A stretch of 9,599 bases of DNA, from the IMG/VR virus record IMGVR_UViG_2713896901_000003, positions 1 to 9,599 of that record; one strand, written 5' to 3'. How positions within the stretch are numbered: position 1 is the stretch's first letter; each line of letters opens with the position of its first letter. A model generated the notes under the pieces. The model did no database searches, was not told where the DNA came from, and worked only from the letters and a program-made list of their open reading frames with translations. Below, piece after piece: positions 1-9,599 of this stretch. Made by a program: the position numbers and the translations under genes. This DNA is from a virus (lineage: Duplodnaviria > Heunggongvirae > Uroviricota > Caudoviricetes).

Positions 1-24
1 AATTTCAAAGGTTAGTTTTTTCAT
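1..24 (-). CDS. ninB: 5' end of a ninB-like gene; partial, continues past the window start
   Basis: The reverse complement of 1-24 reads ATGAAAAAACTAACCTTTGAAATT, which translates to MKKLTFEI. From memory this matches the N-terminus of lambda/P22 NinB. Only 8 codons fall inside the window. Confidence 0.4.
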
Positions 25-40
25 GACTTCCCTCTCCCCC

Positions 41-72
41 AAATAAAAAGGCCTGCGATTACCAGCAGGCCT
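41..72 (-). terminator. Rho-independent terminator in the tR2 position, between the ren-slot ORF and ninB
   Basis: A perfect 8-bp stem, AGGCCTGC (49-56) pairing with GCAGGCCT (65-72), encloses an 8-nt loop. On the minus strand it is followed by TTTTATTT, the complement of 41-48. It lies 25 nt downstream of the stop of the 98..367 ORF. Confidence 0.7.
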
Positions 73-97
73 GTTATTAGCTCAGTGATGTAGATGG

Positions 98-367
98 TCA
101 TTGCTTCATCTCACTTTCCATTTCATCAATGTCAACGTCATCAGGAAGGTGGGAGCAATACGCCGCTATACCATGATGATTTATCTCATACCCTTTAAAC
201 GTTACCATCTGGCGCGTAATCTCAACTTCGTTCAGGAATCCGCCATCGCATAACTGCCTGGCTATTTTCGATTTGGTCTGGATTATTGGTAGTGCCTGTT
301 CTTTCAAAGCGTATGATATTTGTGCATCCCATGCCTTTTCGAGAATGGCTAATTGTTTTTTATTCAT
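98..367 (-). CDS. Hypothetical 89-aa protein in the ren/nin slot downstream of the helicase
   Basis: Intact ORF. Its start overlaps the helicase stop (ATGA overlap at 364-367). It sits in the operon position that ren occupies in lambda. I do not recognise the protein. Confidence 0.6.
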   Translation of the reverse strand: MNKKQLAILEKAWDAQISYALKEQALPIIQTKSKIARQLCDGGFLNEVEITRQMVTFKGYEINHHGIAAYCSHLPDDVDIDEMESEMKQ

Positions 368-1803
368 CAGAATCCTCCTTTCTTCTTGGACTGCGGTTCC
401 TCGCGTTCACGGCGGCGCATTTCAGCAGACTGTTGGTCTGTGTCATAAATAGCGCCATTTGCCTGAATGCAATACACCGTGCCGGTATTGCCATGACGAT
501 TGAGACGAAGGATTAGTTCGGTTTCACCAGGTGGAACACTGTCATCAAAAGCACCTTCACGATGGATCCCCACCCAATAATCGCAATCCTGTTCAATCTG
601 CCCTGTATCTCGGGAGTCACTTGGTAATGGGCGTTTATTGGTTCGGCTTTCCAGTGCGCGGTTAAGCTGTGTCAGAAGCACAACAACGCAATCAAGCTCT
701 TTGGCAAGGTTCTTCAGTCCTTTGGTGATCATGCCGTAGGCAAGGTCGTTACGATCGGCCTTTTCAGCGGTCATTAGTGTCAGGTAATCGACAAGAATCA
801 TGCCAACGCATCCTTTTTCTCGTTTGATTCGACGGCTTTCGCTGACGATTTGAGCCAAAGATAATCCCGGCGTGTCGTCGATGTAAAGCAGGTCGATTTC
901 ACTCAAGCGATTGGCTGTTTCTATCGCCCTGTTGAAGTCACCATCGTAATCACCCTGATAGCCGTCATCAGCGTCATTTGTCGCCGGAAGGTAAAAAATA
1001 TTCGGGTTAACACCTGACTTCTGCCCTACCAGTTTTTCCAGTATCTGGTCACTTGGCATTTCAAGGCTGAACATCAGAGCGGGCTTTTTCTCATGCACTG
1101 CGCAGTTGATTGCCATCTGGCTGTATAGCGTCGTTTTCCCCATCTTAGGGCGAGCGCCAATGACAAACAGAGAGCCTTTCACCAGACCTTTCGGTGACAG
1201 CATCCTGTCCAGCGATGGGATCCCTGTGCTCATTCCTCGTTGTTCGCCTGACGGGTCAAATCGCTTCTCAAGGTCGCTAACCCAGTCTTCCATGACCTCA
1301 CCAAATGAGCGAAGGCCGCGACGCGATCCGGTTTTTGCATGGTCTGTCAGTTGCGTGAAAATCGCCTGAATAGCTTCGTACTTCTGCGTCGCAGTCATTC
1401 CGTTGCGGGAATAGAGCAATTCCGTCGCTTCAGTCATGCGGTTGATGGCGTAGCGTTCCATTGCGGTTTCGCGAACCTGCATTGCATAGGCAACGATGTT
1501 TGCGGCGCTTGGCGTGTTCTTTGCGATCTCAGCGATATAAGCAAAACCGCCAACAGACGCCGTTAACGATTTACGCTCCAGTTCATCGAAAAGCGTCAGG
1601 CCATCTACTGGCTTTTGCTCCCGGTGCATTCTGATTATTTCTTCGAAAAGGATTTTGTGTGGTCGGCTGTAAAATGAATCAGGCTTCAGCATCGCCAGAA
1701 CTTTCTGGACGCGCTCACTGCTGTCATCATCCAGAAGCAATCCACCAATCACCGCCTGCTCTGCCTCGATGCTATGGGGCGGCGCATAAAAATTATCGGT
1801 CAT
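367..1803 (-). CDS. Phage-encoded DnaB-family replicative DNA helicase (P22 gene 12 type)
   Basis: The N-terminus carries the DnaB-typical motif HSIEAEQAVIGGLLLD. A Walker A motif GARPKMGKTT and a DYLTLM motif are present. Length is about 478 aa. The ORF track begins at a GTG (1818). The ATG at 1801-1803 has a GAGGG ribosome-binding site 7 nt upstream and overlaps the O-like stop, giving ATGACCGATAA. Confidence 0.9.
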   Translation of the reverse strand: MTDNFYAPPHSIEAEQAVIGGLLLDDDSSERVQKVLAMLKPDSFYSRPHKILFEEIIRMHREQKPVDGLTLFDELERKSLTASVGGFAYIAEIAKNTPSAANIVAYAMQVRETAMERYAINRMTEATELLYSRNGMTATQKYEAIQAIFTQLTDHAKTGSRRGLRSFGEVMEDWVSDLEKRFDPSGEQRGMSTGIPSLDRMLSPKGLVKGSLFVIGARPKMGKTTLYSQMAINCAVHEKKPALMFSLEMPSDQILEKLVGQKSGVNPNIFYLPATNDADDGYQGDYDGDFNRAIETANRLSEIDLLYIDDTPGLSLAQIVSESRRIKREKGCVGMILVDYLTLMTAEKADRNDLAYGMITKGLKNLAKELDCVVVLLTQLNRALESRTNKRPLPSDSRDTGQIEQDCDYWVGIHREGAFDDSVPPGETELILRLNRHGNTGTVYCIQANGAIYDTDQQSAEMRRREREEPQSKKKGGF

Positions 1804-2692
1804 CGTGTTCACCCTCACGAACTTTCAGGTAGGTATTATCGTTAAGCAGGAAATCAAATCCCTTTTTGTGCCAGACAGTTCCGCGTTGATGGTTTGGGCG
1901 CTCTTCGAACATCCATCGGCAATTTTCGCCTACGTAGCTCAAATAATTTCTCCAGTCCTGCATCGAGAACCCATGCCCGTCAAGCTGGCGGGTTATAACT
2001 CCGGCTTTGCGCCAGAACGTTCGGATCTGGTTTTTACGCTTGTCATTCAGTGCGCGGATTCTTGGCGCTTCAGGAAGGATTTCGTGGTAAGCATCGACAA
2101 CATCCTGACAGCTGACGGAAGGTTTTTTCTTGTCAGACTTTTTGTCTGCTGTGGCACTCTCTAATACGTCAGTATTAGAGATAATATTATTATATTCTTT
2201 ATCTGTGGTAATTTGCTGGTAATCTGCTGGTACTGTATTGCTTACAGGCATTGGTATTGCTGGCTTTGAGGTGGTAATTTGCTGGTAATCTGCTGGTACA
2301 AAATTTGACTGATAATCGTCATATTTCTCTACCGAGAAAACTGAGAATTTACCGTGTGAAACCCAGTCAATCATGCCGAGTTTTTTGAACTTTCTAAGCA
2401 GGTACTGAACGCGATCTGGTTTGAGTCCTGTTTCAAACGCCAGAGAGTTTCTACCGCCAAGTAGCTTCCCTCTGCCTACCAGAATTTCTCCTGCGTCAGT
2501 CATTACATACTCAGGCGTATGCTTTGCTTTGAGGATTAAGTGAACCCACAGATGCGCTGCTTCTGCGTCCTTGTAAAACGGCACATCCATAATTTTACGG
2601 TGCAGCAAGGCATACCCCTTACCGCTGCTTTGATGCGGTCGTTGTAGCCTTCTGGCCTCTCTGGCTTCGGCTAGATTAGATATGTTACTCAT
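1793..2692 (-). CDS. Replication initiation protein with lambda-O-like function, carrying ori iterons in its coding sequence (resembles P22 gene 18 type)
   Basis: 299-aa ORF immediately upstream of the helicase and translationally coupled to it. It contains an internal direct DNA repeat that encodes the duplicated peptide [10 protein letters not shown]. This is the same arrangement as the lambda ori, which lies inside the O gene. The N-terminus resembles phage replisome-organiser proteins. Confidence 0.8.
2165..2299. repeat. Putative origin of replication: iterons plus an adjacent AT-rich tract inside the O-like gene
   Basis: A perfect 29-bp direct repeat, GTGGTAATTTGCTGGTAATCTGCTGGTAC, occurs at 2205-2233 and again at 2271-2299. 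Each copy holds two GCTGGTA(A/C) iteron cores, and a fifth core, TTGCTGGC, lies between the copies. The flanking tract 2165-2204 (AGAGATAATATTATTATATTCTTTATC) is AT-rich and lies downstream in the O reading direction, as in lambda ori. Confidence 0.65.
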
Positions 2693-2831
2693 GACCTTTC
2701 TCCTTCTGCATCAGCTTCACTTTTTCCAACTCAGCCCGGAATCGACCAGGCTGCTTGAAGCTGGACAGGAAGCGATCACGTAGTATGTGTTTGTGAATTT
2801 TGTCCTGGTAAGGACTGAGTTGTTTTGTCAT
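2685..2831 (-). CDS. Small basic 48-aa ORF between cII and the O-like gene, absent from the ORF track
   Basis: Sequence [48 protein letters not shown]. Its ribosome-binding site and start, AGGAGTAATTATGACAAA, match the lambda O translation start as I recall it. The ORF ends with TAA overlapping the ATG of the O-like gene (GGTCATGAGTAA), which implies translational coupling. Confidence 0.45.
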
Positions 2832-2842
2832 AATTACTCCTG

Positions 2843-2920
2843 TGGATTGATCCAGTAATGACCTCAGAATTCCATCTGGATTTGTTCAGAACGCTCGGTC
2901 TTGCACACCGGGCGTTTTTT
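2843..2920 (+). ncRNA. oop: OOP-like antisense RNA, complementary to the 3' end of cII, with its own intrinsic terminator
   Basis: Plus strand 2843-2920 reads GTGGATTGATCCAGTAATGACCTCAGAATTCCATCTGGATTTGTTCAGAACGCTCGG, followed by a terminator stem CGCTCGGT (2892-2899) pairing with ACCGGGCG (2907-2914) and TTTTTTCTTT (2915-2924). This closely parallels lambda OOP RNA as I recall it. A candidate -10 element, CATAAT, lies at 2829-2834. Confidence 0.6.
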
Positions 2921-3163
2921 CTTTGTGATTCCATCAAGCGCATACTTAAAAGCCCTGCTAATTGGACTGATGTCTGATGCCATTCCGAAAGCACACAAGA
3001 CCGAAGCAATAAACCGCCAGTCCGTTCTGCTTATCTTCGATTCATGACAGCCAATCATCTTTGCCAGACCACGCTGGGTAAGCGTTGACAGGTTGATGAG
3101 TAAATCTGTTTCTGCGCGATCAACGTCACGCTGTGATAGTTTGCTGTAACTTGTTTGTTCCAT
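2864..3163 (-). CDS. cII: CII transcriptional activator, the lysogeny establishment regulator
   Basis: 99 aa. The C-terminus [19 protein letters not shown] matches lambda CII ([17 protein letters not shown]) and the HTH region KSQISR-like motif is present. It sits between cro and O, as in lambda. Confidence 0.9.
3141..3154 (+). promoter_or_regulatory. Putative CII-binding direct repeat, TTGC-N6-TTGT, at a pRE-like promoter directed toward cI
   Basis: TTGC (3141-3144), TGTAAC, TTGT (3151-3154) lie within the first codons of cII. The spacing to the cII start codon (CAT at 3161-3163) is the same as lambda TTGC-N6-TTGC at pRE. There is one mismatch in the second repeat. Confidence 0.4.
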
Positions 3164-3190
3164 TTCTTATGATTTCCAATAGTGAATATT

Positions 3191-3216
3191 ACGCATCTGT
3201 TGATGCGTTTTTTGTG
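3191..3216 (+). terminator. Intrinsic-terminator-like hairpin oriented on the plus strand between cII and cro
   Basis: Stem ACGCATC (3191-3197), loop TGTT, stem GATGCGT (3202-3208), then TTTTT, GTG. On the minus strand the 3' flank is AATATT, which is not a good terminator. Confidence 0.4.
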
Positions 3217-3253
3217 GGGACGAATCATCCCCGACCTGATTGTTTAAAGAGCG
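3216..3253 (-). promoter_or_regulatory. nutR: boxA plus a boxB hairpin immediately downstream of cro
   Basis: The minus strand reads CGCTCTTTAAACA (boxA; 3241-3253), then ATCAGGTC, then GGGGATGATTCGTCCCC (boxB hairpin; 3216-3232). The identical 17-nt boxB recurs on the plus strand at 4948-4964. Confidence 0.7.
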
Positions 3254-3260
3254 GTGTTAC

Positions 3261-3485
3261 TTATGCTGCCTGATTCGGTTTTGGAAACAGGTGTGGCAAA
3301 TCGGGGCGAATTTCGTAAGCCTTGATCTGCCCTCCAGTGGCGTTAACGATGGCGGTAACTTTCTCTGGAGAGACCAACCCGCCTTTCAGCCATTTGTGTA
3401 CTGCTGGCTGCGTTACACCACACTTGTCGGCAAGGCGCTTTTGGCTACCGACAATTTTCAAGGCTCGTTGAATTACTAAATTCAT
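3261..3485 (-). CDS. cro: Cro-like repressor with a small HTH
   Basis: About 74 aa, MNLVIQRALKIVGSQKRLADKCGVTQPAVHKWLKGG..., divergent from cI across the operator region. The ORF track starts at 3506, but that first ATG lies about 1 nt from the predicted pR +1 and has no ribosome-binding site. The ATG at 3483-3485 is preceded by AAGAGGT with proper spacing. Confidence 0.8.
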   Translation of the reverse strand: MNLVIQRALKIVGSQKRLADKCGVTQPAVHKWLKGGLVSPEKVTAIVNATGGQIKAYEIRPDLPHLFPKPNQAA

Positions 3486-3518
3486 GAGCATACCTCTTGT
3501 GGTCATTACTTATAACCA

Positions 3519-3584
3519 AAGATAACTCAAGTTATAAAAAATAGCAATAACCTTTGTTATTTTACTTTGGATAACCGTAGTTAT
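3519..3584. promoter_or_regulatory. oR/pR/pRM immunity control region with three 14-bp operators
   Basis: Three operators: ATAACTCAAGTTAT (3522-3535), ATAACCTTTGTTAT (3547-3560) and ATAACCGTAGTTAT (3571-3584). Centre-to-centre spacings are 25 and 24 bp. pR on the minus strand has -35 TTGCTA (3542-3547), 17 nt of spacer, and -10 TATCTT (3519-3524). A candidate pRM -10, TATAGA (3582-3587), precedes a leaderless cI ATG at 3597. Confidence 0.7.
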
Positions 3585-3596
3585 AGATTTGTGGGT

Positions 3597-4304
3597 ATGA
3601 AAACATTCGCAGAAAGACTAAATGCAGCCATGAGCTCAGCAGGTGTGTCGCAATCACAGCTTGCTGACATGGTTGGAATATCTCAGCCAGCCATACAGAA
3701 GATGTCATCCGGTAAAACAAACGGATCTCGCAAGATGGTTGAATTAGCCAATGCTTTAAAAGTACGCCCTGAATGGCTTAGCTCTGGTATTGGTGAAATG
3801 AGGGATGGTACACATGAAGAACCATCCAATGTCCGTGAATCATCTTTAAAAGCTGTGGTATGGGAAGATATTAAAAGAAACGATGACGAGTTTGTCGCGT
3901 TGCCTCTTCTTAACGTTTCGCTTTCAGCTGGAAACGGTAGCTGCGAGCTAGAGGAATCATCAGAGTTCTCTTTGGTTTTCAGAAAGTACTATCTGAAAAA
4001 GATGGGGGTATCTGAAAGATCAGCCAAGCTAGTTAGGGTTGTAGGGCAAAGCATGGAACCAACGCTTCACGACGGAGATGTTGTTGGTGTTAACACACAA
4101 GATACCACAATCAGAGATGGTAAAACCTACGCTATTTGCCAGTCTGATTTGTTACGAGTAAAAACATTAATCGCCACCCCTACATCGGTGATAATCAGAT
4201 CAATAAATCGCGAAGAGTACCCAGATGAAGTAATGGATAGAGATGAATTTCATGAAACCGTAAGGATTATTGGCAGAGTATTCTGGTCGTCTCATAGTTG
4301 GTAA
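3597..4304 (+). CDS. cI: CI-type prophage repressor: N-terminal HTH, C-terminal S24 LexA-like autopeptidase
   Basis: HTH segment QSQLADMVGISQPAIQKM. Candidate Ala-Gly cleavage site in SLSAGNG. Catalytic Ser in GQSMEPT and Lys in LLRVKTL. The ORF track begins at a TTG (3567) that lies inside OR3. The ATG at 3597 gives a 235-aa leaderless product, as for lambda cI transcribed from pRM. Confidence 0.9.
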   Translation: MKTFAERLNAAMSSAGVSQSQLADMVGISQPAIQKMSSGKTNGSRKMVELANALKVRPEWLSSGIGEMRDGTHEEPSNVRESSLKAVVWEDIKRNDDEFVALPLLNVSLSAGNGSCELEESSEFSLVFRKYYLKKMGVSERSAKLVRVVGQSMEPTLHDGDVVGVNTQDTTIRDGKTYAICQSDLLRVKTLIATPTSVIIRSINREEYPDEVMDRDEFHETVRIIGRVFWSSHSW

Positions 4305-4344
4305 CCGATAATCAGAAGAAGACTTACGGAAGTGCGGAGGGATA

Positions 4345-4641
4345 ATGGAATTTCTGATAGTTTTTGTTGTTGTTTTGGTCATCATTCTTTTTGTTTTGCT
4401 AAGCATTAGCAAAAAGCTATCTCAAATGATTGAACATAGCTCTAATCGCGCAAAAGAAGAAGACCATCTAATTGATATAAAAGAGATTCTCTCTGATATA
4501 AAAATCACATTAGATGAAATAAAATACACAACAGATCTAATTGAACAGTATAAAATACCAACCCCAAACGAAAGAAAAGCAATAGATCAATATCGTATTG
4601 ACTTAGAAATCGACGAAATGCTAAGCAAAAGAAAAGACTAA
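4345..4641 (+). CDS. AT-rich moron encoding a 98-aa bitopic membrane protein: N-terminal TM anchor plus an acidic helical tail. It occupies the rexAB or lysogenic-conversion slot downstream of cI.
   Basis: Strong ribosome-binding site, GGAGGGATAATG. Residues 3-22, FLIVFVVVLVIILFVLLSIS, form a TM helix, followed by KK and a helical tail rich in charged residues. GC content is about 30 %, against about 50 % for the flanks. The gene is 40 nt downstream of cI with no terminator between them, and is followed by a tImm-like terminator. Confidence 0.7.
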   Translation: MEFLIVFVVVLVIILFVLLSISKKLSQMIEHSSNRAKEEDHLIDIKEILSDIKITLDEIKYTTDLIEQYKIPTPNERKAIDQYRIDLEIDEMLSKRKD

Positions 4642-4645
4642 AAAC

Positions 4646-4674
4646 ACCCGGCCTCAGCGCCGGGTTTTCTTTTC
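4646..4674 (+). terminator. tImm-like intrinsic terminator ending the cI-moron transcript; the hairpin is bidirectional
   Basis: Stem CCCGGC (4647-4652), loop CTCAGC, stem GCCGGG (4659-4664), then TTTTCTTTTCC. On the minus strand the same stem is followed by TGTTTTTAG. Confidence 0.8.
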
Positions 4675-4813
4675 CTGCCGTCCCCCACCCAATCAACCAT
4701 CCTCATCATAGACAAGCATCAAGCCAAAGGTAGCACTTTCACCCCGCACGCAAGCCCTCAAACACCAATCAATCAGCAACATTTACAAAAATAAAATACC
4801 TTTGTTATCCATC

Positions 4814-4880
4814 ACTTATAACTTATTTACCATAAAATATAAACTAAGTTATTGACCACACCTATAACCTAAGTTATCTT
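4814..4880 (+). promoter_or_regulatory. oL/pL: early-left promoter with operators
   Basis: -35 TTGACC (4852-4857), 17-nt spacer, -10 TATCTT (4875-4880). OL1 ATAACCTAAGTTAT (4864-4877) lies between the -35 and -10 elements. OL2 ATAAACTAAGTTAT (4839-4852) is centred 25 bp upstream. A degenerate third site lies near 4814-4831. Confidence 0.65.
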
Positions 4881-4926
4881 TAAGCCATCAGCAGGACGCA
4901 GGAAGCCAAACGGAACAGATTGGCAG

Positions 4927-4964
4927 GCTCTTTAACATTGATGGAATGGGGATGATTCGTCCCC
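4927..4964 (+). promoter_or_regulatory. nutL: boxA-like element plus a boxB hairpin
   Basis: GCTCTTTAACA (4927-4937), then TTGATGGAAT, then GGGGATGATTCGTCCCC (4948-4964). The boxB 17-mer is identical to that of nutR. Confidence 0.7.
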
Positions 4965-5119
4965 ACCAAAGAGAGGTTGGCTTTGGGATTTGATGAATGT
5001 GCAGGTCGATGCACTAACGCTTAGCGGTGAGCACCTGCCTTTGGGGCAGGATGGGTAGCCGCAATCAGGAGATCGACACCTGACATCAAATCACCAAAGT
5101 CAATCATCGGAGGTATCCA

Positions 5120-5326
5120 GTGAAAGCAAGAGAGATTCGCAAACTCGAACGCGCTCGTAAGCACAAAGAGGCGACAGCAAAACGTAAAAATATTGACCGT
5201 GTTTCAATGGTGGTTTCGCTAGCAGGAGCGAATAGGAAGAAGGTTGAATGTGGTTCGTGCTGCCTGCCAAACGTAGCTCTTTACGCAGCAGGCTACCGGA
5301 AATCAAAACAACTGACAGCAAGATGA
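5120..5326 (+). CDS. N: Short 68-aa N-like transcription antiterminator
   Basis: It is the first gene downstream of pL and nutL. It uses a GTG start with a GGAGGT ribosome-binding site. The N-terminus MKAREIRKLERARKHKEATAKRKN is an arginine-rich motif. From memory, the C-terminus CLPNVALYAAGYRKSKQLTAR matches the C-terminus of the N proteins of the H-19B/933W phage group. Confidence 0.6.
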   Translation: MKAREIRKLERARKHKEATAKRKNIDRVSMVVSLAGANRKKVECGSCCLPNVALYAAGYRKSKQLTAR

Positions 5327-5387
5327 CTTGTGTTGGTCGCCAGAAAATGAAATTAGGCAGCAAACCACTTATTTGAGAGGAATTAAT

Positions 5388-6011
5388 ATGTCATCAATCC
5401 GCTTAACTACGAGAATGAAAGAGGAAATCGCTCGTAACGCTTTAATTAAGTCTGGGGTTTTCACTGAACTTGAAGAAGTAACAAAGTTAAAGAACCAGCT
5501 TGCACTTGACGCCAGAGTTATTGCGTTTGGCGGAAAAAAGAAAACTGAGGAAGTGGACAAGCTGGCATCAAACTTAATGGCTATAAGTGAAGAACTTCAA
5601 AAGGTGGGATGTTCATTTTACTCATGCGATGTTCGTTCTACATCAATTTATCTGACTGTATCTGGCAGAAGGGTGGGATGGCATTCATATGGGAAAGACG
5701 GCAACGGTGAAGATATATTGCTTCCCACCCCAGAAAAAGATAAATGCATGTTTGATGCAGAACACGAAATAACAAAAAGGTTTGATGAAATCTGCGCATT
5801 GCAACAAAAACTTGAATCCAGGAAAAAGGATATCGAATCAAATGTATGGGCTGCTTTGAACTCAGTCACAACAGTTAAGCGACTTATTGAAGTTTGGCCT
5901 GAAAGCAAAGAATTGCTACCAAAAGAAGCAGATAAAGCAAGTGCAGCACTTCCTGCTTTACGGGTAGAAGATTTGAATAAGATGATTGGACTTCCTTCCG
6001 AGGCCGCATAA
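5388..6011 (+). CDS. Hypothetical 207-aa protein: moron A, non-lambda, in the N-cIII accessory slot
   Basis: Ribosome-binding site AGAGGAATTAATATG. No TM segment. About 38 % GC. The gene is immediately followed by its own intrinsic terminator. I do not recognise the protein. It occupies the position of lambda sieB/ral. Confidence 0.7.
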   Translation: MSSIRLTTRMKEEIARNALIKSGVFTELEEVTKLKNQLALDARVIAFGGKKKTEEVDKLASNLMAISEELQKVGCSFYSCDVRSTSIYLTVSGRRVGWHSYGKDGNGEDILLPTPEKDKCMFDAEHEITKRFDEICALQQKLESRKKDIESNVWAALNSVTTVKRLIEVWPESKELLPKEADKASAALPALRVEDLNKMIGLPSEAA

Positions 6012-6028
6012 TCGGCCTTTATTTTTGG
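6001..6028 (+). terminator. Intrinsic terminator overlapping the moron A stop codon
   Basis: Stem AGGCCG (6001-6006), loop CATAAT (containing the TAA stop), stem CGGCCT (6013-6018), then TTATTTTTGG. Confidence 0.7.
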
Positions 6029-6074
6029 CATAAACAACAGAATAAACACTGCACTGAATTATTTGAGGTTAGAT

Positions 6075-6545
6075 ATGACAAAATCATGGAGCGTACCTTT
6101 TCCTGAATCAGAAACTGAACATGAGGGAATGCCTGTTTTCTGGAGATTCCAGGCGACAGTTGAAGAAGATGGAATCAAAATATTCGCACTTCAATATATA
6201 GCTTTTCATCAGACAGAGCATTATGCATGGTTGGTTCCTGCGCATTGGATTGTTAATTTTAAACCAGCACCAAATCAGTGGTTACAGGAATGGAAACAAA
6301 GGAGAAATAGATATGCAATTAAGAAAGTAGCAAAAAATGCAGAAAGATCTTTTGCATTCCCAACGAAGAAACTTGCCATTGAAAGTTTATTGCGCCGGAA
6401 GAAATACCATTTAATGAGAATCAAACAAGATTTGGCTGTTGTATCAACTCTTGTTGATGGGATGAAGAATATTGATACATCAACACCAGATATTGAATAT
6501 AACTTTGGACACAACCAAGAAACAGAAAATTGGGTGTTTTATTAG
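6075..6545 (+). CDS. Hypothetical 156-aa Trp-rich protein: moron B, non-lambda
   Basis: Ribosome-binding site GAGGT 5 nt before the ATG at 6075. The ORF track uses a TTG at 6063. Seven Trp residues and a basic central region, KQRRNRYAIKKVAKNAERS. I do not recognise the protein. Confidence 0.65.
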   Translation: MTKSWSVPFPESETEHEGMPVFWRFQATVEEDGIKIFALQYIAFHQTEHYAWLVPAHWIVNFKPAPNQWLQEWKQRRNRYAIKKVAKNAERSFAFPTKKLAIESLLRRKKYHLMRIKQDLAVVSTLVDGMKNIDTSTPDIEYNFGHNQETENWVFY

Positions 6546-6649
6546 TACGAATAAGCACTGTGTATTCATTCCAACGAGTGAATACACGGAGCAATGTCGC
6601 TCGTAACTAAACAGGAGCCGACTTGTTCTGATTATTGGAAATCTTCTTT

Positions 6650-6676
6650 GCCCTCTAATGTGAGGGCGATTTTTTA
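6650..6676 (+). terminator. Intrinsic terminator between moron B and the ea10-like gene
   Basis: Stem GCCCTC (6650-6655), loop TAATGT, stem GAGGGC (6662-6667), then GATTTTTTAT. Confidence 0.65.
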
Positions 6677-6695
6677 TCTATGAGGATATGAATAG

Positions 6696-7064
6696 ATGTC
6701 AAACATCAAAAAATACATCATTGATTGCGACTGGAAAGCATCAATAGAAATTGAAATCGACCATGACGTAATGACAGAGGAAAAACTTCACCAGATTAAT
6801 AATTTCTGGTCAGACTCTGAATACCGACTCAATAAACACGGCTCTGTATTAAATGCTGTATTAATCATGCTGGCGCAACATGCTCTGCTTATAGCAATTT
6901 CAAGCGACTTAAATGCATATGGTGTTGTGTGTGAGTTCGACTGGAATGATGGAAATGGTCAGGAAGGATGGCCTCCAATGGATGGTAGCGAAGGAATAAG
7001 AATTACCGATATCGATACATCAGGAATATTTGATTCAGATGATATGACTATCAAAGCCGCCTGA
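6696..7064 (+). CDS. ea10: Highly acidic 122-aa protein in the lambda ea10 position, immediately upstream of cIII
   Basis: The length (369 nt, 122 aa) and the position relative to the lambda-identical cIII, kil and gam genes both match lambda ea10. The protein has a net charge of about -20. The assignment rests on position and size, not on recalled sequence. Confidence 0.55.
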   Translation: MSNIKKYIIDCDWKASIEIEIDHDVMTEEKLHQINNFWSDSEYRLNKHGSVLNAVLIMLAQHALLIAISSDLNAYGVVCEFDWNDGNGQEGWPPMDGSEGIRITDIDTSGIFDSDDMTIKAA

Positions 7065-7088
7065 GCGCTGCGTTACCGCATACCAATA

Positions 7089-7115
7089 ACGCTTCACTCG
7101 AGGCGTTTTTCGTTA
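7089..7115 (+). terminator. Terminator-like hairpin upstream of cIII, in the lambda tL2/tL3 region
   Basis: Stem ACGCTTC (7089-7095), loop ACTC, stem GAGGCGT (7100-7106) with one G-U pair, then TTTTCGTT. Confidence 0.4.
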
Positions 7116-7136
7116 TGTATAAATAAGGAGCACACC

Positions 7137-7301
7137 ATGCAATATGCCATTGCAGGGTGGCCTGTTGCTGGCTGCCCTTCCGAATCTTTACTTGAACGAA
7201 TCACCCGTAAATTACGTGACGGATGGAAACGCCTTATCGACATACTTAATCAGCCAGGAGTCCCAAAAAATGGATCAAACACTTATGGCTATCCAGACTA
7301 A
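7137..7301 (+). CDS. cIII: CIII, the FtsH inhibitor that stabilises CII
   Basis: Translates to [54 protein letters not shown], which is identical to lambda CIII by recollection. Ribosome-binding site AAGGAG. Confidence 0.9.
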   Translation: MQYAIAGWPVAGCPSESLLERITRKLRDGWKRLIDILNQPGVPKNGSNTYGYPD

Positions 7302-7413
7302 ATTCACTATCGCCACTTTTATTGGCGATGAAAAGATGTTTCGTGAGGCCGTCGACGCTTATAAAAAATGGATATTAATACTGAAACTGAGATCAAGCAA
7401 AAGCATTCACTAA
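7270..7413 (+). CDS. kil: Kil, the host-killing and FtsZ-inhibiting peptide
   Basis: [47 protein letters not shown] matches lambda Kil (47 aa). It overlaps the cIII 3' end and the gam 5' end, as in lambda. The ORF track entry 7144..7413 is the same frame extended spuriously upstream. Confidence 0.85.
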
Positions 7414-7784
7414 CCCACTTCCCTGTTTTCCTAATCAGCCCGGCATTTCGCGGGCGATATTTTCACAGCTATTTCAGGAGTTCAGCCATGAACGCTTATT
7501 ACATTCAGGATCGTCTTGAGGCTCAGAGCTGGACGCGTCACTACCAGCAGATCGCCCGTGAAGAGAAAGAGGCAGAACTGGCAGACGACATGGAAAAAGG
7601 CCTGCCCCAGCACCTGTTTGAATCGCTATGCATCGATCATTTGCAACGCCACGGGGCCAGCAAAAAAGCCATTACCCGTGCGTTTGATGACGATGTTGAG
7701 TTTCAGGAGCGCATGGCAGAACACATCCGGTACATGGTTGAAACCATTGCTCACCATCAGGTTGATATTGATTCAGAGGTATAA
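7368..7784 (+). CDS. gam: Gam, the RecBCD inhibitor
   Basis: 138-aa long form, identical or near-identical to lambda Gam. The functional short form GamS starts at the ATG at 7488-7490, which is preceded by an AGGAG ribosome-binding site. Confidence 0.9.
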
Positions 7785-7789
7785 AACGG

Positions 7790-8575
7790 ATGAGTACAGC
7801 ACTCGCAACGCTGGCAGGGAAGCTGGCTGAACGTGTCGGCATGGATTCTGTCGACCCACAGGAACTGATCACCACTCTTCGCCAGACGGCATTTAAAGGT
7901 GATGCCAGCGATGCGCAGTTCATCGCATTGCTGATCGTCGCCAACCAGTACGGCCTTAATCCGTGGACGAAAGAAATTTACGCCTTCCCTGACAAGCAGA
8001 ACGGCATCGTTCCGGTGGTGGGCGTTGATGGCTGGTCCCGCATCATCAATGAAAACCAGCAGTTTGATGGCATGGACTTTGAGCAGGACAATGAATCCTG
8101 TACATGCCGGATTTACCGCAAAGACCGTAATCATCCGATCTGCGTTACCGAATGGATGGATGAATGCCGCCGCGAACCATTCAAAACCCGCGAAGGCAGA
8201 GAAATCACCGGACCGTGGCAGTCGCATCCCAAACGGATGTTACGGCATAAAGCCATGATTCAGTGTGCCCGTCTGGCCTTCGGATTTGCTGGTATCTATG
8301 ACAAGGATGAAGCCGAGCGCATTGTCGAAAATACCGCATACACTGCAGAACGTCAGCCGGAACGCGACATCACTCCGGTTAACGATGAAACCATGCAGGA
8401 GATTAACACTCTGCTGATTGCCCTGGACAAAACATGGGATGACGACTTATTGCCGCTCTGTTCCCAGATATTTCGCCGCGACATTCGCGCATCGTCAGAA
8501 CTGACACAGGCCGAAGCAGTGAAAGCTCTTGGATTCCTGAAACAGAAAGCCTCTGAACAGAAGGTGGCTGCATGA
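7790..8575 (+). CDS. bet: Bet, the Red-beta single-strand annealing protein
   Basis: 261 aa, [72 protein letters not shown]..., lambda Bet by recollection. Confidence 0.95.
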
Positions 8576-9252
8576 CACCGGACATTATCCTGCAGCGTAC
8601 CGGGATCGACGTGAGAGCTGTCGAACAGGGGGATGATGCGTGGCACAAATTACGGCTCGGCGTCATTACAGCTTCAGAAGTTCACAACGTGATAGCAAAA
8701 CCCCGATCCGGAAAGAAATGGCCTGACATGAAAATGTCCTACTTCCACACCCTGCTTGCTGAGGTTTGCACCGGTGTGGCTCCGGAAGTTAATGCTAAGG
8801 CGCTGGCCTGGGGAAAACAGTACGAGAACGACGCCAGAACCCTGTTTGAATTCACTTCCGGCGTGAATGTTACTGAATCCCCGATCATCTATCGCGACGA
8901 AAGTATGCGCACCGCCTGCTCTCCCGATGGTTTATGCAGTGACGGCAATGGCCTTGAGCTGAAATGCCCGTTTACCTCCCGGGATTTCATGAAGTTCCGG
9001 CTCGGTGGTTTCGAGGCCATAAAGTCGGCTTACATGGCCCAGGTGCAGTACAGCATGTGGGTGACGCGAAAAGATGCCTGGTACTTTGCCAACTATGACC
9101 CGCGAATGAAGCGTGAAGGCCTGCATTATGTCGTGGTTGAGCGGGATGAAAAGTACATAGCGAGTTTTGACGAGATGGTGCCGGAGTTCATCGAAAAAAT
9201 GGACGAGGCACTAGCTGAAATTGGTTTTGTATTTGGGGAGCAATGGCGATGA
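8572..9252 (+). CDS. exo: Exo, the Red-alpha 5'-3' exonuclease
   Basis: 226 aa, [43 protein letters not shown]..., lambda Exo. It overlaps the bet stop through an ATGA overlap. Confidence 0.95.
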
Positions 9253-9431
9253 AGCATCCTCACGATAATATCCGGGTAGGCGCGATAACTTTCGTCTACT
9301 CCGTTACAAAGCGAGGCTGGGTATTTCCCGGCCTTTCTGTTATCCGAAATCCACTGAAAGCACAGCGGCTGGCTGAAGAGATAAATAATAAACGAGGGAC
9401 TGTATGCACAAAGCATCTCCTGTTGAATTAA
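9243..9431 (+). CDS. Lambda orf61-like small protein
   Basis: 62 aa, [52 protein letters not shown]..., in the position immediately after exo, as for lambda orf61. Confidence 0.65.
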
Positions 9432-9595
9432 GAACGAGTATCGGGATGGCACATAGCCTCGCTCAAATTGGAGTCAGGTTTGTGCCAATACCAGTAGAAA
9501 CAGACGAAGAATTTCATACGTTAGCCACATCCCTTTCACAAAAGCTGGAAATGATGGCGGCGAAAGCAGAAGCAAACGAGAGAGACCCGGCATGA
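9404..9595 (+). CDS. Lambda orf63-like small protein
   Basis: 63 aa, [41 protein letters not shown]..., in the position of lambda orf63. A further ATG at 9592 (ATGACAAC) begins the next small ORF, orf60a-like, which is cut by the window end. Confidence 0.65.
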   Translation: MHKASPVELRTSIGMAHSLAQIGVRFVPIPVETDEEFHTLATSLSQKLEMMAAKAEANERDPA

Positions 9596-9599
9596 CAAC

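Follow-up and report, generated by a model that had tools for sequence, protein, structure and literature searches.

The N antitermination protein of phage lambda is annotated with 133 amino acids (aa) in NC_001416, and its accepted form has 107 aa, starting at an internal Met. For the N protein of phage H-19B, the contribution of the C-terminal domain (residues 101–127) has been described: when these residues are removed, antitermination is lost at terminators far from nut, the domain being dispensable near nut and needed for the resistance of the transcription complex at distant terminators, and when only the last seven (residues 121–127) are removed, antitermination is retained (PMC3526286). 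Here, a 68-aa N gene is described that lies at positions 5120–5326 of a 9,599-nucleotide (nt) stretch of viral DNA (positions 1 to 9,599 of the IMG/VR record IMGVR_UViG_2713896901_000003; hereafter the window), along with the 53 bases that follow its last sense codon, in which the end of another N gene can be read out of frame. The window comprises the immunity and early-left region of a Shiga toxin (Stx)-phage-like lambdoid prophage, with pL transcription running rightward as shown. A preliminary description of this DNA had taken the gene to be a truncated N carrying a recombination scar. The analysis reported here favors, with a probability of about 0.8, a complete and probably functional N gene built from two modules and followed by an inherited, non-coding leftover, the short length of the protein being independent of that leftover. 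The features on which this reading depends are as follows.

5120–5326, plus strand: N gene, 68 aa, GTG start and TGA stop.
5109–5113, plus strand: Shine-Dalgarno sequence GGAGG, 6 nt before the GTG.
5123–5188, plus strand: arginine/lysine-rich motif, residues 2–23 (KAREIRKLERARKHKEATAKRK), 11 of 22 residues basic, read from the sequence.
5189–5323, plus strand: P22 gp24-type C-terminal half, residues 24–68, from tblastn and alignments.
5255–5323, plus strand: counterpart of the H-19B N C-terminal domain (residues 101–127), residues 46–68, from alignments.
5324–5376, plus strand: remnant of the 3' end of a lambda/21-type N gene, comprising its last 17 codons and its stop and lying in the -1 frame with respect to N, from nucleotide identity to live ends.
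4927–4964, plus strand: nutL, with boxA GCTCTTTAACA (4927–4937) and the boxB hairpin GGGGATGATTCGTCCCC (4948–4964).
3216–3253, minus strand: nutR between cro and cII, with boxA CGCTCTTTAAACA (3253–3241) and boxB GGGGATGATTCGTCCCC (3232–3216).

The 68-codon open reading frame (ORF) given in the preliminary description was confirmed, and an in-frame TGA at 5081–5083 means that it cannot extend further upstream. Against the Pfam profile PF25694 (N_peptide), the protein scored 60.3 bits (cutoff 27.9; E = 2.7e-16), with residues 12–68 aligned to profile positions 44–100. Identical or near-identical 68-aa ORFs were found in at least six other loci (L001, L014, and L134–L137) with differing downstream neighbors, and the Shine-Dalgarno sequence and start are kept as GGAGGTATCCA(A/G)TG in L137, L138, and L139. 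A sequence search of the PDB with the 68-aa N returned no meaningful match, and the full-text literature yielded no relevant description of this protein or of the remnant behind it, the older key papers on H-19B N, 933W, and HK97 lying outside its coverage.

Half of residues 2–23 are Arg or Lys, and this segment, which the preliminary description had rightly singled out as arginine-rich, has the composition of an arginine-rich RNA-binding motif. Its putative target is present twice: the identical 17-nt boxB stands behind boxA in both nut sites, which share an inverted repeat (I2) of 23 nt at 96% identity. Among 143 loci, this boxB accompanied this N-terminus in nine of nine, all related and including those of the 80-aa and 90-aa relatives considered below, and was found in none of the other 134. 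On the minus strand of L138 (~1203–1150) and L139 (~1380–1330), the nutR boxB reads AGGGATGTTTCGTCCCT and the nutL boxB keeps GGGGATGATTCGTCCCC; the change in nutR consists of a compensatory G1>A and C17>T exchange (G-C to A-U at the base of the stem) and one loop change. Taken together, the 68-aa protein appears to be a member of the N family with its own boxB specificity. Just downstream of nutR and upstream of cII, at the position of lambda tR1, there is also a hairpin (ACGCATC AACA GATGCGT; 3190–3207, minus strand), which is kept downstream of nutR in L138 and L139.

The C-terminal half of the protein has a different affinity. Among phage records, the best tblastn matches to residues 21–68 were gene 24 products of P22-like Salmonella phages (66.7–68.8% identity), and collinearity extends over 45 residues (RIDRVTKAISLAGTRQKEVEGGSVLLPDVALYAAGYRKSKQITAR in the 68-aa N versus NIDRVSMVVSLAGANRKKVECGSCCLPNVALYAAGYRKSKQLTAR in gp24). 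Within it, RVSMVVSLAGANRKKVE can be aligned to RVTKAISLAGTRQKEVE in the middle of gp24, its match to lambda N residues 34–47 being ambiguous in the alignment. Residues 48–68 (CLPNVALYAAGYRKSKQLTAR) match the final 21 residues of the 127-aa HK97 N at every position and those of 933W N at all but one (L/I); 933W N likewise has 127 aa, in agreement with the approximate length given in the preliminary description for the 933W group. The 127-aa N agrees with the published numbering of H-19B N (RSRRRER at residues 12–18, length 127; PMC3526286), in which residues 101–127 consist of QPETGV and, after it, the 21-residue tail with which the 68-aa N ends as well. Judged by its sequence, the C-terminal RNA polymerase (RNAP)-binding domain is thus present. 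The assignment of this C-terminus to the H-19B/933W family in the preliminary description therefore holds for the last 21 residues, but the alignments indicate that what had been called a 933W-type end is in fact the C-terminal half of a P22 gp24-type N. Because gp24-type N genes also occur with their own TAA or TAG and no adjacent remnant (in the P22-like phage ST104, in Enterobacter L139, and in L134–L136), the ...TAR end is native to the gp24-type module.

Comparison with relatives indicates why the protein is short. Relative to gp24 (100 aa), the 68-aa N is without a 13-residue leader and without a linker of about 25 residues after the arginine-rich motif. Its closest relatives are Enterobacter proteins of 80–82 aa (P0004–P0012), in which the first 17 residues are conserved and the gp24-type tail is diverged; the diverged C-terminal motif of these relatives (CLPEVALFAAGYRKSNNVTAR) shows that the tail is conserved at the protein level. 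The 68-aa form is 12 residues shorter than they are, between the motif and the central segment, and the difference corresponds to a 36-nt in-frame indel flanked by CGTG (window 5196–5200 versus L139 3078–3120). These flanks suggest a deletion in the 68-aa form, but P22 gp24 itself has the short form at this point (RIDRV, compared with NIDRV in the 68-aa N), which runs counter to that polarity. A 90-aa relative (P0030, from L138) joins the same N-terminus in frame to a tail of the lambda/21 type, and its gene is followed by an Nmad5-family gene as in the window, which shows that this N-terminus has been combined with both gp24-type and lambda/21-type tails; P0030 is also the longer intact N at this locus for which the preliminary description had proposed to look in related prophages. 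The length of the 68-aa N is independent of the scar and results from the lack of any leader ahead of the arginine-rich motif and from the brevity of the linker behind it. The proposal that the scar caused the shortness has to be given up, as the same junction stands behind N proteins of 127 aa.

On nucleotide identity, bases 5324–5376 are without doubt a genuine lambda/21-type N gene end that has come to lie out of frame. The first three bases of this remnant now serve as the N stop codon (TGA, 5324–5326), and the ATG at 5323–5325, which overlaps that stop, opens a frame that reads MTCVGRQKMKLGSKPLI and a stop codon through 5376. The out-of-frame peptide, correctly recognized in the preliminary description, is identical to the end of lambda N (ITCSGRQKIKGKSIPLI) at 11 of 17 residues and to the end of the N of HK542 and SH2026Stx1 (VTCVGRQKMKLGSKPLI) at 16 of 17. 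From 5324 on, every base of the remnant agrees with the live N genes of HK542 and SH2026Stx1 at their 3' ends (100% identity), and with HK542 the complete identity covers 5324–5450, through the start of the next gene, because of which the match is not due to chance. It should be noted that for the label "21-type" HK542 and SH2026Stx1 acted as sequenced stand-ins for phage 21. The 42-aa ORF of the alternate frame had no Pfam match, and an Rfam search of 2800–7900 returned no known RNA family at N or at the remnant, the cIII thermoregulator being the only one found. The remnant appears to lie outside any current frame with translation signals of its own and is most simply regarded as inert.

The same junction (an Arg codon, then TGACTTGTGTTGG...) is found after the full-length 127-aa N of 933W, of HK97, and of L003, an O39 prophage; in 933W the sequence reads ...ACGGCGAGG TGA CTTGTGTTGGTCGCCAGAAAATGAAATTAGGCAGCAAACCACTTATTTGA, and HK97 is alike. 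In IMG/VR contigs anchored only on the YAAGYRKSKQ coding motif, the remnant follows immediately on at least 57 gp24-type N genes, always with the junction exactly at the stop codon, and these genes comprise five N-terminal types with lengths of 68, 90, 102, 114/118, and 127 aa. Contigs anchored on the remnant instead contained at least about 59 live, in-frame N ends, at least 36 dead copies directly after a gp24-type stop, and at least 14 dead copies behind other sequence, numbers that depend on the side of the junction used as anchor. Live and dead copies have the same set of at least five right-hand neighbors. Longer remnants, of 27–32 codons (...RHNLYYRKPRSEMGVTCVGRQ...), lie 0.36–1 kb downstream of N behind inserted morons in L002, L134, and L135. 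Within the phage and complete E. coli collections, no record combined the 68-aa N, the immediate remnant, and then the Nmad5-family gene; the best records there cover 4850–5377 at 98.5% and continue with a different gene.

The scar proposed in the preliminary description is thus real insofar as a genuine lambda/21-type remnant lies behind another C-terminus, but it is not local. The junction predates this phage and coexists with N proteins known to work. The distribution fits an ancestral event by which most of a lambda/21-type N gene gave way to a gp24-type 3' end, in some cases accompanied by morons, and a subsequent recombinational spread. Two further IMG/VR contigs depart from the common form: in L188 the start of the remnant is identical (TGACTTGTGTTGGTCGCCAGAAA) and then gives way to a different lambda-like allele (...GRQKQRGKSIPAYYD), and in L158 the left junction differs and the remnant is shorter. 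Both point to probable recombination inside the remnant and to multiple origins. The morons interposed in L002 (1972–2334) and in L134 and L135 (1980–2342), between the TAA of a gp24-type N and a longer 21-type remnant, include a protein of 120 aa (MGQEEKYELKK...) that is named "antitermination N domain protein" in one RefSeq genome and had no Pfam match.

The surroundings of the gene are those of an N gene. It opens the leftward early operon and has a pL-like promoter and nutL upstream. Over about two thirds of its length, the window shares 98% identity with Stx phages, e.g., Stx2-converting phage 86, VT2-Sakai, and phi315, and the immunity segment is the part that differs from them. On the minus strand lie genes for a DnaB-like helicase and an O-like replication protein, cII (2864–3163), and cro (3261–3506); the order on the plus strand is cI (3567–4304), a small membrane protein, N, the Nmad5-family gene, two small genes, cIII, kil, gam, bet, and exo. 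The remaining features are as follows.

4852–4880, plus strand: pL-like promoter (TTGACC, 17 nt, TATCTT), downstream of cI, from a consensus scan.
4838–4852 and 4863–4877: operator-like repeats flanking the pL-like promoter (direct repeat D11, with inverted repeat I5 to the oR side).
4975–5105, plus strand: long-range N-leader hairpin ending just before the Shine-Dalgarno sequence, from RNA folding and inverted repeat I12.
5388–6011, plus strand: Nmad5-family gene (Pfam PF18757, 2.2e-70).
6000–6019, 6648–6669, and 7088–7107, plus strand: three predicted terminator-like hairpins with T-runs, from a consensus scan.

The RNA of 4887–5130 folds at -92.1 kcal/mol (z = -4.87). In lambda, the N-leader hairpin controls N translation and RNase III processing; the hairpin found here resembles it and, by analogy, would have a like role. 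Behind N, the Nmad5-family gene follows at the same 11-nt spacing as after the live lambda/21-type N of HK542, SH2026Stx1, and L138. An Nmad5 protein has been reported as an inhibitor of the Tmn defense system (PMC11846954), and the gene in the window may by analogy be an early-expressed anti-defense gene. The terminator-like hairpins follow the Nmad5-family gene, the next ORF, and the ORF after that, all upstream of cIII, kil, gam, bet, and exo. The preliminary description had supposed that a weakened N might explain why each moron carries its own terminator; such terminators are normal in an N-dependent pL operon and, as predicted here, imply a need for a working N and not compensation for a poor one. 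Elsewhere in the region, a 98-aa protein with a hydrophobic N-terminus is encoded directly after cI, at the position of lambda rex (4345–4641, plus strand); it had no family match above threshold, and its gene is followed by a bidirectional terminator-like hairpin (4646–4665). The Rfam family Lambda_thermo (cIII thermoregulator, RF01804) was found at 7124–7182 (plus strand; 88.5 bits, E = 2.4e-21) and extends into the beginning of the cIII ORF (7137–7301).

A model for the locus can be put forward from these observations. Residues 1–23 would form an arginine/lysine-rich RNA-binding motif matched to the boxB hairpin (GGGGAUGAUUCGUCCCC) that follows boxA in nutL and nutR, and residues 24–68 a gp24-type half ending in the 21-residue tail, which makes up most of the RNAP-binding domain of H-19B N. 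As in lambda, P22, and H-19B, the protein would bind boxB, through residues 2–23, on the nascent pL and pR transcripts. It would then join the Nus factors at boxA, with NusA probably engaged through the central gp24-like segment, and the C-terminal tail would make RNAP resistant to the terminators ahead of cIII, gam, bet, and exo. The contacts with NusA and RNAP, about which the preliminary description had raised doubts, and the antitermination activity of the 68-aa form are in this way inferred from its resemblance to other N proteins. In an ancestor, a lambda/21-type N gene presumably kept only its last 17 codons when a gp24-type 3' end took the place of the rest, and the junction would since have been inherited and reshuffled among E. 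coli lambdoid phages, 933W and HK97 included. In the window, 5324–5376 would now supply nothing other than the TGA stop of N and a spacer before the Nmad5-family gene.

Several observations weigh against a complete and functional N and should be set beside this model. At 68 aa, the protein is shorter than every characterized N (about 100–127 aa). The RefSeq pipeline (PGAP) treats the gene as an incomplete pseudogene in four E. coli genomes, annotating the last 30 codons alone ("regulator, incomplete, missing N-terminus"; 2888–2977 in L001 and 1888–1977 in L134, L135, and L136). The nine loci in which boxB and the N-terminus occur together do not count as independent, being related; the proportion of live and dead remnants is biased by the anchoring of each collection scan on one side of the junction; and how many ancestral recombination events took place, and in which direction, is a reconstruction and not an observation. 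Some of these points would also be expected if the ORF were a decayed, non-functional N remnant in a prophage that is defective or that relies on N-independent expression, as would its being the shortest member found (68 versus 80–127 aa), with a linker 12 residues shorter than in the 80-aa relatives. Such decay is nevertheless unlikely. The full 68-codon ORF and the Shine-Dalgarno sequence are intact in all four of the RefSeq chromosomes concerned, and one diverged copy of the gene starts with ATG, so the pseudogene calls are best explained as an annotation artefact arising from an N-terminus without a match among reference proteins. The ratio of non-synonymous to synonymous substitution rates (dN/dS) is 0.06 against L134, 0.30 against L137, and 0.26 against the Enterobacter 80-aa form (dS = 0.83), values that come from only 68 codons. 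Decay would further have to be reconciled with a cognate boxB kept in both nut sites, with a C-terminal half that stays collinear with P22 gp24 even across the "short" linker, and with the three or more terminator-like hairpins ahead of cIII, bet, and exo. In view of the complete ORF, the signs of purifying selection, and the H-19B-type RNAP-binding domain that is kept, the 68-aa N is better described as compact than as truncated, contrary to the preliminary description.

Two other accounts concern the junction itself, and both are very improbable. One holds that the remnant is expressed, either as a -1 frameshift isoform of N with a lambda/21-type tail or, by termination-reinitiation at ATGA (5323–5326), as a free 17-aa peptide. 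The alternate frame is indeed open over 5248–5376, a potential start codon (ATG here, GTG in 933W and HK97) overlaps the N stop, and the remnant is nearly invariant among the sampled copies. The start/stop overlap is, however, automatic when an AGA or AGG Arg codon precedes TGA, no Shine-Dalgarno sequence lies before 5323, and all four point variants seen in the at least 57 dead copies are non-synonymous in the old frame and alter the peptide, a tally that represents few events beside a live sample biased by the search anchor. Other gp24-type N genes moreover have no remnant or have it 0.36–1 kb away behind morons. If a product were nevertheless made, it would give the phage a second way to act on RNAP, and the near-invariance among 933W, HK97, and this phage would then reflect selection and not recent common descent, a prospect just as remote. 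The other account, in line with the preliminary description, is that of a recent event in this phage, in which recombination would have introduced a 933W-type 3' end into a lambda/21-type N, thereby truncating it to 68 aa. The two sides of 5323/5324 do differ in affinity, Stx1a phages matching from 5267 and HK542 from 5324. Yet the identical junction follows N genes of 127, 114/118, 102, and 90 aa, and in L134–L136 the 68-aa N ends with a TAA stop of its own and has different neighbors; because of both observations, N length and junction are unlinked, and there is very little room for a local event. Programmed frameshifting was considered separately and rejected: the N frame has no X XXY YYZ heptamer, there is no homopolymer run longer than 5, and the RNA of 5300–5400 folds no more stably than shuffled sequence (z = +0.39).

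Were the 68-aa protein shown to be active, it would be the smallest natural N-type antiterminator, in which a 23-residue motif is joined directly to 45 gp24-type residues, and it would set a natural lower limit on what an N protein needs in order to form a termination-resistant complex. Structural studies and synthetic circuits would gain a compact, orthogonal N/boxB pair. As a marker, the remnant is clean and datable, recording the rebuilding of N genes by illegitimate recombination and the later spread of these genes among E. coli lambdoid and Stx phages, and the RefSeq genomes that list this N as a pseudogene appear to be misannotated. The understanding of N antitermination itself is unchanged, and the scar, though real, is an ordinary sign of gene shuffling among phages.

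Among known systems, the locus is closest in its C-terminal half to P22 gp24, here represented by the 100-aa gp24 of ST104. In both, the gene is the first of the pL operon and lies downstream of a boxA-boxB nutL, and the C-terminal 45–48 residues are collinear and ~67–69% identical. The ST104 protein differs in its 13-residue leader, its arginine-rich motif (GNAKTRRHERRRK), and its linker of ~25 residues, none of which is present in the 68-aa N, and its gene ends with its own TAA and is followed by a convergent sieB, without a lambda/21-type remnant. The Enterobacter-type peptides of 80–82 aa and P0030 share with the 68-aa N the N-terminal motif MKAREIRKLERAR(K/Q)HKE, the same Shine-Dalgarno sequence, and the same nutL boxB, and the 80–82-aa forms share the gp24-type tail as well. 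They differ in that the 80–82-aa forms have 12 more residues, P0030 has its lambda/21-type tail in frame, and L139 has no remnant after its TAG. The 127-aa N of H-19B, 933W, and HK97 resembles the 68-aa N in its tail and in having the same remnant right after the stop, but upstream of the tail it is unrelated or much longer, with the RSRRRER motif, another nut site, and ~60 extra residues.

Lambda N and the N of HK542 and SH2026Stx1 represent the type of gene from which the 53-base remnant came. In HK542 and SH2026Stx1, the identical DNA stands in frame as the last 17 codons and is followed by the same Nmad5-family gene; here it is out of frame and outside N, and the live tail is of the gp24 type. 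Mosaic "novel joints" at the gene boundaries of lambdoid phages are a concept known from the HK97/HK022 and HK620 genome papers. The junction described here is like them in that a short shared segment, the remnant, stands between alternative modules, with at least five right-hand neighbors behind live and dead copies alike. It differs from them in that the joint lies inside a former coding region and has left behind a recognizable, out-of-frame gene end.

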